A stretch of 6,335 bases of DNA, from the NCBI RefSeq assembly GCF_003334355.1, contig NZ_QOWP01000066.1; one strand, written 5' to 3'. Position 1 is the first letter of the stretch, and every line of letters starts with the position of its first letter. A program made the position numbers and the translations under genes. The notes under the pieces are model-generated. The model did no database searches, was not told the origin of the DNA, and saw only the letters and a list, made by a program, of their open reading frames with translations. The stretch is from Escherichia coli. Lineage in GTDB: Bacteria > Pseudomonadota > Gammaproteobacteria > Enterobacterales > Enterobacteriaceae. Shown piece after piece: positions 1 to 6,335 of the stretch.

Positions 1-80
1 ATGCTTCCATCGGAAACGATGATCTGGCAGCCTGAGTTCACAGATAAAACACTCTCCAGGAAACCCGGGGCGGTTCACAA
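1..80. repeat. Left copy of perfect 80-bp terminal inverted repeat
   Basis: Positions 1-80 are the exact reverse complement of 6256-6335 (80/80). Identity breaks at position 81 versus 6255. Contains GTTCACA twice (36-42, 73-79) and the 12-mer TAAAACACTCTC (45-56). Confidence 0.97.
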
Positions 81-1200
81 TTATGCGGTTATATCGCTTA
101 CCTGCGGCCTCAATGAATTTTTGCTGCCCTTTAGTAGCAGACTCATAAAGCTGTTTATCTGAAATGCCTCCCAGACCATCGTTATATGTTCTGACCAGAT
201 TTTCCCGAGCCTGTTGTTGATTCAGCCTGTTCGTACCCGTTCCAAAAAAAGGAATTTTTTCGCCTGTTTTCTGGGCCAGACTCTGCACAGTGTTTTTATC
301 TTTCAGTACGTCACTGGTCATTAACGGTAGGTTTCTTTCCGATGCAAAATCAACAGCGGCTTTCGCTTCCGGTGCCATATCACCGCGAACGGCCCTCGAA
401 ACGGCACTCACTGTATTCTCCAGACCCTTACCAATGCCGCCAATGCCAGCAGAGATTACCGTTTGTAACGGATCAATATCTTCTCCACCAGCGAGGCTGG
501 TGGCTCCCTGTAGTGCTAAATCTGTAGCTGCTGATTTCCCTATGGCCCCCAGCACCGTTCCGGCCCTGCCCGCTGGTGTAAACGCCAGCGCATTAGCCAG
601 AAACGATGCCACGTCTTGCGGTGATAAACCCGGCTTGTTCAGAGCATAATCACCGGATGGTAGGGAAACGATAGTGTTACCCTTCTCATCCTGCCTTAAT
701 TTCGCTCCCATGCTCTGAAGAATCTTTTCCTGAGATGCGTCAGAGCCGAAAAGTTGAGACCATCGAGCTTTTAGAGCATCCATGCTGAGTGAGGTTAACT
801 CTGGGGCAAGGTCGACATTTTGCAGTCTCTCCATCTCTGGAGTCATTCGGCTTTCGCCTGTTATAGCATCGCGCATCGCAGCCCCAAGACTGGCTCCCTG
901 TTCTGCTGAACGTTCAAGCCCCTCTCTTTGCTGAGTCGCTAACTTTGCATACCCTGACGCAAGAGAATTATCAGATGATGTATGTTGAATATTTTGAGTT
1001 GCTGATTGGGCTCGGTCTATTTCATTCGTTGATGGTAGTGGATAGGCAGCATAAAAAGCCTGCTTAGCCTGCTCTACACTTTCTCCGGCTTGCGGGGCAA
1101 CGACTTCGTTGAAGTATTGCTCCTGAGCCTGCGCTTTTTGTTCTGGTGCTAACGCCTGATACTGTGGAGAGGCGATAACATCTTTCCATGCTTTAGCCAT
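1..1200 (-). CDS. Hypothetical protein, third gene of minus-strand operon; 400 codons in window, 3' end beyond window start (partial)
   Basis: ATG at 1200..1198 overlaps the TAA stop of the upstream gene by 1 nt (TAATG), implying translational coupling. SD-like GGGGTG lies 5-6 nt upstream. Hand translation of all 400 codons down to position 1 shows no stop (MAKAWKDVIASPQYQALAPEQKAQAQEQYF ... GKRYNRIIVNRPGFPGECFICELRLPDHRFRWKH). Ala/Gly/Gln/Ser-rich with no catalytic motif recognised. Absent from the ORF track, presumably because it has no in-window stop. Confidence 0.8.
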   Translation of the reverse strand, partial: MAKAWKDVIASPQYQALAPEQKAQAQEQYFNEVVAPQAGESVEQAKQAFYAAYPLPSTNEIDRAQSATQNIQHTSSDNSLASGYAKLATQQREGLERSAEQGASLGAAMRDAITGESRMTPEMERLQNVDLAPELTSLSMDALKARWSQLFGSDASQEKILQSMGAKLRQDEKGNTIVSLPSGDYALNKPGLSPQDVASFLANALAFTPAGRAGTVLGAIGKSAATDLALQGATSLAGGEDIDPLQTVISAGIGGIGKGLENTVSAVSRAVRGDMAPEAKAAVDFASERNLPLMTSDVLKDKNTVQSLAQKTGEKIPFFGTGTNRLNQQQARENLVRTYNDGLGGISDKQLYESATKGQQKFIEAAGKRYNRIIVNRPGFPGECFICELRLPDHRFRWKH

Positions 1201-2666
1201 TAATCACCCCATAGTGAAGAAAAGTTACTGCTGGCTGCTGGCTGTGATACCTGCTCAGATTGCGGCAATGTCTGCGACGAAGAAGAAGTTCCTCTGTCAA
1301 CTGCTGAAATAACCCGCAAAGCATCATAAGCTCGACCAGAAGCAGCTTTCAGCGAATTGAACTGGTTTTCCATCTTCCGGCGCTTGGTATCAATGGTTTT
1401 TGTGGAATCACCAGGCTGAGGGAAATACATTTGATAATATTTTGACATTTCAGCAGGTACGATAGCTGCCCCTGTTTCCTGACGGAGTATTGCCATTATT
1501 GCGTCATTAGCATTAACAACGTATTGCTGCTCTGTTGGGCTGAGCGTTAAGTTAGCCAGCGTCCCATTACCCAAAGCATTATTAATGATCGCCACTCGCT
1601 GTGGGCTAATCTGGCCTTTCAGTGTATCCATTGAATCAAGAGCATCCCTAACTCTGTATGCAAATCCAGCAGCTTTTTTAGCCCCTTCTGGCGACTTTTC
1701 CATGATCTTTTGAGCTGTTGGCAAAGCTATTAGACGAAACCCATCTCCAGATATTGGCTGGTTTAGTTTTCCCTGCTCTTCACTTCCGTCTGTGTAGTAT
1801 TTTGTGACAGTGCCATCATCGTTTTCCCTAACACTCATTAATTTTTTGGCGTTTGTATTAATTCCAGCCGCTGCCGCAAATGCCGCCGCCCCCTCTGGAT
1901 CCGCCTTTAACATTTGAGCGTACTGATTGTAATTCTGCATTGCTGCTGTTGGTGCATATGCTGACGTTAACGCATTTGCTCGGCTAATATCCTGCCCTCT
2001 CGCCTGAAGTGCTTCGCCAGCCTGATTGCTGCGGATTGTCTCTGCCAACTCGCCGCGCTCAATATCCCGACCTTCCATTTGATCTTTGATATCGAAATAC
2101 TTCTCATGACCGAGAGAAAACAGCGCCAGATTACCTGCGAAATGCTGGAAGCCCTGCGGGTCATTAACCTGCATTTCAGCAATAGTTTCTGGAGGGATAC
2201 CTAAACGACGCATCTCCTGCTCATTATCCATCATGAACCTGCCAAATGCGCCCGGACCAAGCGATGAGGCTACCTGTGCTTTGAGCGCCAGATTGCCATA
2301 ATCATCCCTTTGAGCATCATCGACATAACTCATCCCTTTACGGACTTCCTCAAACTCTTCTGGGAATGCTGTAATAAGATTACGCATCTGCTCCCTGTCG
2401 CCGGACGCATAAGCATCTGCATAACCTTTCTGGAATGCCGCTTTACGCTCCTGCTGTTGCTGCTGCTTATAAATATCAGCAACTCCAGCCAGACCACGTA
2501 ACGCGGTCAGACCAACGTTATTTGCACCTGAGCGAGCCAGTTCATTGTTTTCGCGGATCAGACCAAGCGTTGCGTTAATGTCGCTTGCCTTTGGCGCATT
2601 CTCGTTTTGCGTACCGATGCCAGCCAGAAAACCACCAGAATTAATACCCTGTTGCCACGTAGCCAT
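1200..2666 (-). CDS. Hypothetical low-complexity protein (488 aa from ATG), second gene of operon
   Basis: The ORF track gives 1200..2678 (492 aa) starting at a GTG that overlaps the upstream small ORF. I prefer the ATG at 2666..2664 (MATWQQGINSGG...), 4 nt after the TAA of the 57-aa ORF. Stop TAA at 1202..1200. Contains a QQQQQ run and Ala/Gln-rich segments. No Walker, HNH, integrase or nuclease motifs seen by eye. Confidence 0.85.
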   Translation of the reverse strand: MATWQQGINSGGFLAGIGTQNENAPKASDINATLGLIRENNELARSGANNVGLTALRGLAGVADIYKQQQQQERKAAFQKGYADAYASGDREQMRNLITAFPEEFEEVRKGMSYVDDAQRDDYGNLALKAQVASSLGPGAFGRFMMDNEQEMRRLGIPPETIAEMQVNDPQGFQHFAGNLALFSLGHEKYFDIKDQMEGRDIERGELAETIRSNQAGEALQARGQDISRANALTSAYAPTAAMQNYNQYAQMLKADPEGAAAFAAAAGINTNAKKLMSVRENDDGTVTKYYTDGSEEQGKLNQPISGDGFRLIALPTAQKIMEKSPEGAKKAAGFAYRVRDALDSMDTLKGQISPQRVAIINNALGNGTLANLTLSPTEQQYVVNANDAIMAILRQETGAAIVPAEMSKYYQMYFPQPGDSTKTIDTKRRKMENQFNSLKAASGRAYDALRVISAVDRGTSSSSQTLPQSEQVSQPAASSNFSSLWGD

Positions 2667-2670
2667 TGAT

Positions 2671-2844
2671 TTACCCACGTCCAGTTAAAGTGTAAGCCAG
2701 CGCCTTATCCATTAATCCCCGAGCAATTTCGTGGATCGTTGGCGCAACTCCTACCTCTGATTTTTTACGCTGCTCCTCCTGAATTTTCTTTATCGCTTCC
2801 ATTTGCTTCTCACTTATCAATACTGGCTTTACTGAAATAGCCAT
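2671..2844 (-). CDS. Small 57-aa protein, possible ribbon-helix-helix-like DNA-binding regulator (inference)
   Basis: ATG at 2844..2842 preceded by a strong SD (AAGGGGG, 4 nt spacer); stop TAA at 2673..2671. Translation MAISVKPVLISEKQMEAIKKIQEEQRKKSEVGVAPTIHEIARGLMDKALAYTLTGRG has a short N-terminal beta-like segment (KPVLIS) followed by two predicted helices, as in Arc/Mnt/CopG-type folds. Too short for the ORF track. Confidence 0.55.
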   Translation of the reverse strand: MAISVKPVLISEKQMEAIKKIQEEQRKKSEVGVAPTIHEIARGLMDKALAYTLTGRG

Positions 2845-2877
2845 AACGCCCCCTTAGAACTGTATAAAACAACAGTT

Positions 2878-2905
2878 ATTATAGTTTCACAAATCGCAAT
2901 ATTAA
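2878..2905 (-). promoter_or_regulatory. Candidate sigma70 promoter for the three-gene operon
   Basis: On the minus strand a perfect -10 TATAAT (plus-strand 2878-2883), a 16-bp spacer and a -35-like TTAATA (2900-2905, 4/6 match). The predicted start is about 25 nt upstream of the 57-aa ORF ATG. Confidence 0.4.
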
Positions 2906-2918
2906 TCATCGCAATTGC
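2893..2918. promoter_or_regulatory. Operator-like repeats overlapping the -35 region
   Basis: Direct repeat ATCGCAAT at 2893-2900 and 2908-2915 flanking the palindrome ATTAAT, plus the 8-bp perfect palindrome GCAATTGC at 2911-2918. Confidence 0.35.
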
Positions 2919-2939
2919 AAAATATGAAACAAATAGCAC

Positions 2940-2972
2940 AAAAAAATGCCACCGCTCAGTAGCTGGTGGCAT
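2940..2972 (-). terminator. Rho-independent terminator between the primase unit and the downstream operon
   Basis: Minus-strand RNA reads AUGCCACC-A-GCU-ACUG-AGC-GGUGGCAU followed by UUUUUU: an 11-bp GC-rich stem with one bulge and a 4-nt loop, then a 6-U tract. Lies downstream of the primase gene and iterons, and upstream of the operon promoter. Confidence 0.7.
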
Positions 2973-3166
2973 CGTTCTGTATGTCAGGTTTTGACAGGTT
3001 TTTTATGGACTCTAAAAACTATATTTATGGTGTCGCATTACTCTTCACGGCAGGCGCTTTCCAGTTCTGCCCTTGCTTCTGGCTCCATTGGTAATTTGAT
3101 TCGCGATCAGCTATGCGGATGGTTTGCTGAACAGGCATAACAACTTCTCAAAGGCTGTTTTTTGAA

Positions 3167-3183
3167 CTACGAAAATTTCGTAG
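3167..3183. promoter_or_regulatory. Palindrome CTACGAAA-A-TTTCGTAG, putative protein-binding site
   Basis: Perfect 8-bp inverted repeat with a 1-bp centre. Shares the TACGAAA/TTTCGTA half-site with the palindrome at 3222-3242. Confidence 0.35.
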
Positions 3184-3221
3184 TGCTCACTTTCAAAAAC
3201 GTCACGCCCTTGTACACAGGA

Positions 3222-3242
3222 TTTTACGAAAGTCTCGTAAAA
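3222..3242. promoter_or_regulatory. Palindrome TTTTACGA-AAGTC-TCGTAAAA, putative protein-binding site
   Basis: Perfect 8-bp inverted repeat with a 5-bp spacer. Overlaps the 12-mer TAAAACACTCTC (3238-3249), which also occurs in the terminal inverted repeat. Confidence 0.35.
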
Positions 3243-3291
3243 CACTCTCTGATGCCAGCCAGGTGTTGTGCGCATCAATTCAGTCACATTG

Positions 3292-3405
3292 TGTTGGTTC
3301 AAAATACCGTGTTGTTGGTTCAGTGTTGGTTCAATAAAAAGAATAAAATCCTTATAAAACAATACTCTTTACAAATTGAACCAACTGAACCAACTGAACC
3401 AACAC
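3292..3405. repeat. Iteron cluster, putative replication origin or cis-replication region
   Basis: TGTTGGTTCA at 3292-3301, 3313-3322 and 3324-3333 (21- and 11-bp phasing). A 43-bp AT-rich spacer (3334-3376). TGAACCAAC at 3377-3385, 3386-3394 and 3395-3403 in inverted orientation; the 11-mer GTGTTGGTTCA is perfectly inverted at 3395-3405. Starts 24 bp after the primase-helicase stop. Confidence 0.6.
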
Positions 3406-3428
3406 CTTTTCTACGCACATGAAGAAGC

Positions 3429-6185
3429 TCATTCTTCAGATGAGTTGTAATCTCCTGGCTGGTAATTGAGTACATAAACGTTTATTTGTCGTCCCTGAAT
3501 ACGTGGTGATTTTCTTTGGTATCCACGACCGCTGTTTGGTGGGGTTAGCATCCCGGCTTTTTTCAACACTTCAGCAAACTGTTTTGCGTTGAAACCACAT
3601 GCGATCTCCTTTTCAAATGTGGCCGGGAATGTGTAGAAAATCATTGGGCTTTCGTCATGTTCTCCACGCTGACGGTATCCGGCTAAATCTTTGATTGGCA
3701 AATCTGCCGGGCTGTATGGAAATGGTGCAAAACGGCTAAGCCCATAGGCATTAAGAAATGCCTCCGTTTGTTCAATAATCTGCTGATGTTCTTTGTTACC
3801 TGTGCCGAACTCGCGCAACCATGCGTTATAGCTGTGCTGTATCGCATCACGGCATGTCTGAGCATCCCAGCCTGTTACAACCTCGCCTAACAGCAATGCG
3901 GCCTCCAGAATGGCAAATCGCGCGGCTACACGGTGAACCTGCTCACCATAATCGGATGGAATCAGGCTTCTCCATCTGCTTTCGCAGTCACGAACAGTTT
4001 TAATAGCCTGTTGCTGGTGGTCTGCCAGCCATTTAATCCACTCACGCCCGGCTGCGCCGTGGTGATGCTGGTAAGCGTCTTTCAGTGCGTCTGCGTGCTG
4101 TTTTCCGTTCTGGTAATCGTGAAAGAGTACTGCTTTACTCAACGGAATATTCAGCAGTCGCACCAGTTGCCCGGCTTTGGTTTTTCGCCCGGAAGTAGCG
4201 ATAAATGTTTCTAAATCCATTTCTCCAGTGCTGATTGCCACTGTACGCCAGCGTTTTAGATCCCGGTTTCCACCATCTTTAGCGCCTTGCAGTTTCCCTA
4301 CACCGTTAAATAACGCATAGGCAGACTGTGAAACACTGACAGGATCAGCGCCCTGACCAACTTCATCAAGCGGCATTAGTCCGTCATTGTGGGCGGCGGC
4401 TTCATTTGCCAGCCCCAGCGCGGTTCCGTACCACGTCAGCCGCAGTAAATCAGGGTTGCCGTATAAGCTGCTCGCCACGTTTGCCGTGGTGGTCTTACCT
4501 GCGCTCGACTGCTCATAGAAATGAATGCCGAACCCGTCAGCGCCCACCAGCCCAATCAATGGCGCTGCCAGTGCTGCGCCGATCCCGGTCATCATTGAAT
4601 AGTTACCAAAGGCCAGACGCGCCACGTTATCACGCCAGCTTTTCGCGCTCCCTGAGACGGTATATCCGGCTGCGGCTGAGCTTCTCCCGCTGAACAGCAC
4701 AGGATTTTCAGGTGTTCCGATGATTTCCCCATCAGGCATGATGTACGCTCCGCATTGCCAGCCAGTGGCATGAGCAACACGCCACAATTCACGAGAGCCA
4801 CTGCGTTGTAGCCAGTCTGCCAGTATTGCTCTGAGGCTGCTTTTGGTCGTGACATTTACCCCACCAGCTTTAAGTGTGCGCCATCCTTCACGTTCACCAA
4901 TATCAGCCAGTGGAATGGCAGCGGTTGTCGGCGTTTCAGAACCAAACGACAGCCAGCGAAGAATGAGATACTGGTCTTTATCGTCTCTGCCAGTACCGAT
5001 AACGCTTAACGGAGAACATAACCAGCTTTCGTTATTGATGATTTCTCCACTCTGGCTGTCAGCTCTCGGAGATACCCAATAAATACCATCCTCGCGGCTT
5101 TCTATTCTTGGTTTCAGTGGGTCGGTATCCATAACCTTAAAATCGCTTCCCTCAATGGTCTGTGGCTGCTGTTTCACGCCATTACCCTGTGGTTGGTACA
5201 TTGACTTATTGAACGCTTCTGTGGCGCATTTAATGCCGTGTTTTTGGTGGTAATCATTCCAGTCTGCTTTGTGATCTGTCGGGGGTAATGCCACCCATCC
5301 AGAAACAGATAAAGCTGCTTTTTCTGCTGCTATTCTCCCCGTGTTTTGTCTTCCTTCGCTGTGGTCGTTATCCGCAGCAATGATGATTTGTGCTGAAGGA
5401 AATTTATCCCGCAGTACCTGGGCGACATATAACAGGTTCCCGGCATCAATCGCCGCCACTGTCAGCGATTCTGGACGAATTAAATGGGCAGATAATGCCG
5501 TTGCCAGCCCTTCTGCGATTAAGATGCTCTGTGTTGTTTCTGGTGCGTTTATGGCGTGATATGCCCCTCGCTTTGCTGAACCTGTCAGGAGTCTTTTTTC
5601 ACCATGTGAGGTAATAGTCTGTGCTGCTGTGACTGCGCCGGATTTATCCACCAGCGCCAGCAACAGAGATCCATCGGGCAACACTGGGAATGTAAAATCA
5701 CCTACCCCTTTCGCAACCAGATAATCAGATTTGCCGTTTACAGCCTTTCTGCGCATGTCATCAAACTGACGGGAAAACGTATCCCGTCTTTGTTGTTCGT
5801 CCTTCTCTGCCCTTTTCAGGCGCTCCTGTTCGCGTCGCTGGCGCTCGGTTTCCAGTTGTTCCCGTTTCTGGCTGGTGGCTTCTGGTGTTTCCGTTGTCCG
5901 GTAATCAATACCCAGAACATCAGCGGCAAGAAGCGCCGCCTCTGTTGTGTCGCAGTTATTTACGCGTTTAATTAAATCCAGCCCATCACCAGCGCCGCAC
6001 TGATTACAGATGAAGCTACCGCGCCCGTTGTCGTCGAACCGGAATCGATCTTTGCCCCCACATGCAGGGCAGGGAGCATGACGGCGAGGAGAGTCAGGGA
6101 CATTTATGTTCAGACAGCCCAGCACATGAGGCCAGTTGTTTTCAGACGCACTGATAACCTGACGGATAAGATCAATGTTTCGCAT
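3429..6185 (-). CDS. Primase-helicase, P4 alpha-like (zinc ribbon + TOPRIM + P-loop NTPase, 918 aa)
   Basis: ORF track 3429..6185. ATG preceded by SD ACGGGGG with a 5-nt spacer. Zinc-ribbon motif CPACGGKDRFRFDDNGRGSFICNQCG (aa 39-63, nt about 5997-6071). Charged linker ERQRREQERLKRAEKDEQQRRD. TOPRIM signatures IAEGLATA and IIIAADNDHSEG (aa about 220-300). Walker A-like SSAGKTT (aa 560-566, nt 4488-4508) and Walker B-like MPLDEVG. The architecture matches the P4 alpha and DUF927-type primase-helicases of satellites and integrative elements. Confidence 0.92.
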   Translation of the reverse strand: MRNIDLIRQVISASENNWPHVLGCLNINVPDSPRRHAPCPACGGKDRFRFDDNGRGSFICNQCGAGDGLDLIKRVNNCDTTEAALLAADVLGIDYRTTETPEATSQKREQLETERQRREQERLKRAEKDEQQRRDTFSRQFDDMRRKAVNGKSDYLVAKGVGDFTFPVLPDGSLLLALVDKSGAVTAAQTITSHGEKRLLTGSAKRGAYHAINAPETTQSILIAEGLATALSAHLIRPESLTVAAIDAGNLLYVAQVLRDKFPSAQIIIAADNDHSEGRQNTGRIAAEKAALSVSGWVALPPTDHKADWNDYHQKHGIKCATEAFNKSMYQPQGNGVKQQPQTIEGSDFKVMDTDPLKPRIESREDGIYWVSPRADSQSGEIINNESWLCSPLSVIGTGRDDKDQYLILRWLSFGSETPTTAAIPLADIGEREGWRTLKAGGVNVTTKSSLRAILADWLQRSGSRELWRVAHATGWQCGAYIMPDGEIIGTPENPVLFSGRSSAAAGYTVSGSAKSWRDNVARLAFGNYSMMTGIGAALAAPLIGLVGADGFGIHFYEQSSAGKTTTANVASSLYGNPDLLRLTWYGTALGLANEAAAHNDGLMPLDEVGQGADPVSVSQSAYALFNGVGKLQGAKDGGNRDLKRWRTVAISTGEMDLETFIATSGRKTKAGQLVRLLNIPLSKAVLFHDYQNGKQHADALKDAYQHHHGAAGREWIKWLADHQQQAIKTVRDCESRWRSLIPSDYGEQVHRVAARFAILEAALLLGEVVTGWDAQTCRDAIQHSYNAWLREFGTGNKEHQQIIEQTEAFLNAYGLSRFAPFPYSPADLPIKDLAGYRQRGEHDESPMIFYTFPATFEKEIACGFNAKQFAEVLKKAGMLTPPNSGRGYQRKSPRIQGRQINVYVLNYQPGDYNSSEE

Positions 6186-6197
6186 TCTGGCCCCCGT

Positions 6198-6335
6198 TTA
6201 GTGCGTCACTGGTGCTTCTGGGATGCCGTTTTCGTTTAGTTCGGCAATAAAGCTGTTGTGAACCGCCCCGGGTTTCCTGGAGAGTGTTTTATCTGTGAAC
6301 TCAGGCTGCCAGATCATCGTTTCCGATGGAAGCAT
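6198..6335 (-). CDS. Small ORF (45 aa) directly upstream of the primase-helicase; start may lie beyond the window
   Basis: ATG at 6335..6333 and TAA at 6200..6198, ending 12 nt before the primase ATG. Translation MLPSETMIWQPEFTDKTLSRKPGAVHNSFIAELNENGIPEAPVTH. The first 80 nt are the terminal inverted repeat. Operon-like spacing with the primase supports it, but it is short and without recognised motifs. Confidence 0.4.
   Translation of the reverse strand: MLPSETMIWQPEFTDKTLSRKPGAVHNSFIAELNENGIPEAPVTH
6256..6335. repeat. Right copy of perfect 80-bp terminal inverted repeat
   Basis: Exact reverse complement of 1-80. Confidence 0.97.

Follow-up and report, generated by a model that had tools for sequence, protein, structure and literature searches.

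A perfect terminal inverted repeat on an Escherichia coli contig, probably formed by two inverted IS1203/IS629 copies in a satellite-like island and a short-read assembly boundary

Contig NZ_QOWP01000066.1 from the Escherichia coli assembly GCF_003334355.1 ends on both sides in the same sequence in opposite orientation, which raises the question of whether this repeat marks the ends of a small linear genome, the borders of an invertible segment, a duplicated gene start, or the place where the assembly stopped. The whole 6,335-nucleotide (nt) stretch is referred to as the window, and all of it was scanned for inverted repeats. The arms at 1-80 and 6256-6335 are 100% complementary over 80 nt, with 6175 nt between them, as an earlier note on this DNA had stated, and sequence comparison bears out its remark that identity is lost abruptly at 81 versus 6255. 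An 80-nt perfect match in 6.3 kb cannot be of chance origin, because the runner-up inverted repeat in the window is just 19 nt long at 79%. The window is very likely a segment of a chromosomal island lying between two inverted copies of the insertion sequence (IS) IS1203/IS629 and cut by the short-read assembler just inside the repeat.

By sequence match, each arm is identified as the right-terminal 77 nt of IS1203/IS629; the copies are inverted, and their right ends face inward. This assignment is based on the 77-nt match to annotated element ends and on the multi-copy occurrence of the sequence. Two plasmid records with annotated IS1203-family copies (L002 and L003) were used as references, and in both of them window 1-77 exactly matches the right terminus of a 1310-bp element whose annotation reads "IS3-like element IS1203 family transposase", with the gene ending at the equivalent of window position 35. 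Within copy 1, which reads toward the right tip (...GGTTCA), lie the 3' part of the transposase gene with its stop codon TGA (33-35) and the right terminal inverted repeat. Of the transposase gene, each arm retains the last 35 nt, stop codon included. The 1310-bp reference element has TG...CA tips, and its terminal inverted repeats are imperfect: between the two ends of a reference copy, 13/13 positions agree, followed by 9 of the next 12. The reference copies are surrounded by 3-bp direct duplications, CTG in L002 and CAA in L003. Among full-length copies elsewhere, 3-bp target duplications were found in 33 of 58, which fits the pattern published for IS629. IS629 and its isoform IS1203 have been reported mostly from prophages and prophage-like elements, with duplications of 3-4 bp (PMC3271280). 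Megablast searches with 240-nt junction queries found the 77-mer region in 4,074-4,134 of 5,426 complete E. coli genomes, at a median of 3 places per genome. The IS end is dispersed and multi-copy: in 4,074 of these genomes together, it occupies over 24,000 places.

The identity of the arms also decides what the reading frames at the ends mean. Both arms had been described as starting with an inward ATG, and a duplicated gene 5' end had been offered as one explanation. The ATG is present, but it is incidental, as it lies inside the IS and outside the frame of the transposase, which terminates at the TGA. What is repeated is the 3' (right) end of the IS with the end of the transposase gene, so the duplicated gene start has to be abandoned. 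The open reading frames (ORFs) beginning at the inward ATG (1-162 on the plus strand and 6198-6335 on the minus strand) leave the IS in a non-transposase frame and are, to judge from the sequence, chimeras with no duplicated gene start. On the right side, this frame happens to match the frame of the native C-terminus of the remnant gene. The minus-strand frame of 400 codons does run through the left arm as described, from 1200 to 1 with zero stops; if a complete IS is present, the fused frame would extend 53 codons to a stop.

The unique part of the window was traced with megablast, using the whole window as a query. The core at 78-6262 is contiguous chromosomal DNA, with at least 80% of the query found at one place in 264 of the 5,426 complete E. 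coli genomes, and the best core matches span 78-6262 at 99.9-100% identity. The match to strain ECamp52 (NZ_CP196304, locus L001) has 1 mismatch. In ECamp52, the sequence runs on past both ends of the core into the same genes, and the core is an internal part of an island adjoining tRNA-Thr and proA. The view that the window is not a complete linear genome with inverted terminal repeats (ITRs) is thus supported, since the core runs on into flanking genes in the 264 genomes. The terminal bases of the window have no match at the core locus in these genomes, and have thousands of matches annotated as IS3-family transposase. On the left, homology to the uninterrupted genome ends at the very tip of the IS; on the right, it passes the tip by no more than 4 bases, which match by chance. 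The left IS interrupts a P22 gp16-like gene of 701 amino acids (aa) after codon 374; the window ORF is identical to the first 374 residues of the native ECamp52 protein. The right IS cuts a 200-aa gene, and the native protein ends in ...HNSFIAELNENGIPEAPVTH, the same as the tail of the window ORF. This remnant forms the tail of a chimeric 45-aa ORF at 6198-6335.

Three nucleotides of each arm lie outside the IS. The CAA at 78-80 and the TTG at 6256-6258 are native bases of two different sites in the uninterrupted genome of ECamp52. A target preference for CAA was considered and ruled out: CAA directly follows the IS right end in 2 of 120 independent flanks from IMG/VR and plasmid loci, and the duplicated triplet shows no strong bias in 33 reconstructed empty sites (L002-L120). 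For these reasons, it is a coincidence, of about 1 in 64, that the repeat reads 80 nt instead of 77. In the same 33 empty sites, only a weak bias is seen outside the triplet, with C at -2 (22/33) and G at +2 (18/33), which suggests a weak palindromic target preference, C-N-[NNN]-N-G, at IS1203/IS629 sites. Neither insertion site in the window fits this pattern in full. Intramolecular replicative transposition, which produces an inversion with inverted duplications, was ruled out by reasoning, as both triplets are native at their own sites; that pathway would leave one inverted duplicate within the segment and the other beyond it, next to unlike ends of the IS. At the right site (window 6256-6262; L001 18179-18185), the native sequence continues after TTG with TGAA, which is also how the IS tip begins (its first 4 nt), so that the BLAST match runs to 6262 and the exact junction appears ambiguous. 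In IS orientation, the right empty site reads TTCA-CAA, and resembles the IS right tip followed by a 3-nt spacer.

Short reads fail to cross a multi-copy element of 1310 bp, and contigs stop about a k-mer length inside it. The default largest k of SPAdes is 77. Of about 120 collected IMG/VR loci holding this IS end, 23 likewise break off 40-288 nt into it. With 77 nt of IS at each end, the contig is consistent with SPAdes at k=77 plus the 3-nt coincidence, and the 80-nt shared overlap would fit equally well with k=81 if the graph is node-centric. The depth of 77 nt at which the contig is cut probably reflects the k-mer of the assembler. Both junctions fall exactly at the canonical IS tip, which argues that they are real transposition products and not spurious joins. 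The flanking of a unique segment by two inverted copies of a longer repeat and the boundary at a collapsed repeat in the assembly graph had been proposed as separate possibilities. Both hold, the longer repeat being the 1310-bp IS1203/IS629 into which the contig reaches 77 nt on both sides, and they are one thing seen from two sides.

The arrangement can be accounted for as follows. The window would be a short-read E. coli contig with 6.2 kb of a satellite-like chromosomal island, whose cargo comprises a primase-helicase gene, a candidate origin, and genes for P22-type ejection proteins. One IS copy would have entered the gp16-like gene, and the target of the other would have been the 200-aa gene upstream of the primase gene. 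The assembler would stop 77 nt inside each copy because the IS is multi-copy, leaving a 77-nt terminal inverted repeat, and the repeat would read 80 nt because, by chance, an identical triplet (CAA in IS orientation) adjoins both insertions. Full-length IS copies presumably follow on both sides, and the outer flanks are expected to be the rest of the island, with 3-bp duplications. Flipping of the segment by homologous (RecA-mediated) recombination between the IS copies is a generic possibility, with nothing in its support.

Three points weigh against this explanation. The first is that no public record among those searched, closed assemblies included, holds either junction. With the 240-nt junctions as queries, no record covering at least 80% was found among the 5,426 complete E. 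coli genomes. The exact junction 34-mers are absent from IMG/VR, that of the right junction is absent from JGI metagenome contigs, and that of the left junction is absent from GTDB representative genomes. Exact-protein look-ups of the two chimeric products gave zero matches. The second is that 77 nt of each IS are visible, and the full length, the outer flanks, and the target duplications lie beyond the window. The third is the common CAA triplet, as a coincidence of ~1/64 is not predicted by the model.

Other explanations were weighed against the same evidence. A composite transposon of the Tn5 or Tn10 kind, with inverted IS arms, that moved or can move as a unit with the primase-helicase gene and the origin, is very unlikely. 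Its geometry fits, as inverted IS copies bracket a cargo that includes a replication module. The two IS copies around a cargo that are expected of a composite transposon correspond here to two inverted IS right ends, from which full-length copies are presumed. However, the cargo is collinear with, and internal to, an island found at one chromosomal site in 264 genomes, and both IS copies cut island genes mid-frame, as two in-situ insertions would. This segment with IS arms in another context was found in no searched record, and the outer flanks are beyond the window. There is accordingly only a slim chance that the inverted IS1203 pair has turned a self-replicating satellite-like module, with primase-helicase, iteron origin, and ejection genes, into a composite transposon that could be moved between replicons or flipped.

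A mixture of strains, one with the left insertion only and another with the right insertion only, merged by the assembler, has a slighter chance still. It would agree with the lack of either junction in any closed E. coli genome searched. However, an uninterrupted allele would branch the graph at the junction, and the contig would end there rather than 77 nt into the IS. The core also shows no sign of collapsed variants, with its 1 mismatch to the reference. An assembler chimera, in which IS ends were wrongly joined and no IS stands beside the segment in the real genome, is more improbable again. Contig ends near repeats are error-prone, and the junctions are without external confirmation in the searched databases; yet both joins lie at the exact canonical IS tip, which is a signature of transposition, and a spurious k-mer join needs shared sequence, whereas 0-4 nt is all that the empty sites have in common with the IS tip. 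It is scarcely credible, and contradicted as far as sequence can tell, that the window is a complete linear replicon of a phage, satellite, or plasmid with genuine 80-bp ITRs, or a programmed invertible switch: the repeat is perfect and stands exactly at both ends, with a replication gene and a candidate origin inside, but it is an IS end present thousands of times elsewhere, two genes are truncated at it, the core extends into neighboring genes in 264 genomes, so that its ends are not physical ends, and no protein-primed polymerase, telomere resolvase, invertase, or recombinase was found among the window ORFs and family matches, the recognizable products being a primase-helicase and ejection proteins. 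The invertible segment suggested in the earlier note finds no support as a programmed inversion for the same lack of a recombinase gene, and a site-specific system of the Hin/Gin/Cin or Fim type was rejected on this ground and on the identity of the repeat as an IS end.

The features of the window are listed in Table 1. The proteins of the window were compared with PHROG families, and the native full-length counterparts were taken from the RefSeq annotation of ECamp52.

Table 1. Features of the 6,335-nt window, with coordinates, strand, and supporting evidence. L001 is the uninterrupted island of strain ECamp52.
Feature	Coordinates	Strand	Evidence
IS1203/IS629 (IS3 family) copy 1, last 77 nt	1..77	+	77/77 identical to annotated right ends in L002 and L003
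CAA, native target triplet beside IS copy 1	78..80	+	Uninterrupted L001: ...AGCGT CAA TTATGCGG...
P22 gp16-like DNA-transfer/injection gene, first 374 codons of 701-aa gene	78..1200	-	phrog_770 E=2.4e-58; phrog_29864 E=9.9e-131
P22 gp20-like ejection protein, intact, 488 aa	1200..2666	-	phrog_917 "released from the phage upon host infection" E=3.3e-145; RefSeq "phage DNA ejection protein"
Hypothetical gene, 57 aa	2671..2844	-	ORF list; WP_001018522.1 in L001
Candidate iteron-type origin, six exact 9-mers TGAACCAAC	3293..3403	.	Adjoins primase gene; cargo, outside the terminal repeat
TOPRIM + DUF927 primase-helicase, intact, 918 aa	3429..6185	-	phrog_1139 DNA primase E=3.5e-178; RefSeq annotation
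200-aa gene (phrog_1515), last ~19 codons and stop	6198..6258	-	phrog_1515 E=1.2e-47; cut by IS copy 2
TTG, native target triplet beside IS copy 2 (CAA in IS orientation)	6256..6258	+	L001: ...AAAGCTG TTG TGAAGATC...
IS1203/IS629 copy 2, last 77 nt	6259..6335	-	Exact reverse complement of 1-77; right tip toward the unique segment

The native 701-aa protein matches phrog_770, a DNA transfer protein, with E=4.7e-156, and its counterparts in other records are annotated as P22 gp16 family or gene 16. The description of phrog_917 is the one borne by gene 20 in records of P22-like phages. Parts of the ejection genes show about 86-93% nucleotide identity to P22-like phages. The 57-aa protein gave zero family matches in the PHROG and family scans. 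Directly downstream of the primase-helicase gene, copies of TGAACCAAC are found on the minus strand at 3293, 3314, and 3325 and in tandem on the plus strand at 3377, 3386, and 3395, with a 43-nt AT-rich spacer between the two sets. At up to 1 mismatch, 10 matches were counted against 1.4 expected, and 0 of 200 shuffles reached that count. The array looks like an iteron-type replication origin and is regarded as a candidate.

Besides the 918-aa primase-helicase, the 57-aa gene, the 488-aa "phage DNA ejection protein", and the 701-aa protein, the island of ECamp52 carries genes for a tyrosine integrase, a helix-turn-helix (HTH) regulator, an antirepressor, and an ash-family protein, and several small genes. 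From this gene content, it appears to be a satellite-like island. At L001 11018-24204, satellite-type genes (integrase, ash, antirepressor, and primase-helicase) stand together with the P22 gp20- and gp16-like ejection genes of window 1-2666, and no capsid or tail genes are annotated in the island.

The same island type is closed as a circle in a 12,152-bp circular "plasmid" record (L124; NZ_CP148430.1, 1-12152), whose genes encode an integrase, an HTH regulator, an antirepressor, an ash protein, and the same TOPRIM-DUF927 primase, a gp20-like gene being present in truncated form. In this strain, the chromosome likewise matches the primase end of the window. The circular record points to a possible episomal form of the island. 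In another E. coli record, NZ_CM176349.1, the same primase-helicase gene is interrupted by an IS66-family element, and this island has thus been struck by different insertion sequences in different strains.

Compared with IS1203/IS629 copies known from prophage-like elements of E. coli, the two copies here have the same right-end 77 nt and the same junctions at the canonical TG...CA tip, and they disrupt genes of a prophage-like island, the commonest reported location of IS629 (PMC3271280). They differ in that these two insertion sites are found in 0 of the 5,426 complete E. coli genomes and that only the ends of the elements are visible. As in other short-read breaks at multi-copy repeats, the contig reaches a fixed short distance (77 nt) into the element on both sides; the difference is that both ends enter the same IS end in opposite orientation, which produces a terminal inverted repeat.

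Composite transposons such as Tn5 and Tn10, and the IS30-bound "IScream" prophages, which have been described as composite-transposon-like (PMC12247996), likewise have two IS copies around a cargo, which here consists of phage-related genes. In contrast to them, there is no evidence of movement as a unit here, and the IS belongs to the IS3 family, not to IS30. The cargo is also a fragment with two truncated genes and not a functional phage.

The window would pass the ITR rule of CheckV, which requires that both ends carry an inverted repeat of 20 bp or more. The authors of CheckV described ITRs as a hallmark of transposons and stated that just 33.2% of ITR contigs reached their high-quality standard (PMC8116208). 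Unlike a contig judged by that rule, the window has an ITR that is directly recognizable as IS ends, and it is an internal fragment of a larger island.

The feature is ordinary in each of its parts: a known IS at two new sites, a known island type, and a known limitation of assembly. Two strain-specific insertions of IS1203/IS629 would inactivate two island genes, which is routine for this IS. The case is a caution that a perfect end repeat on a contig with phage genes passes the usual rule that an ITR means a complete genome, though it is, very likely, merely an IS pair and an assembler cut. Recognizing the IS ends keeps a 6.3-kb island fragment out of catalogues of complete small phage and satellite genomes.

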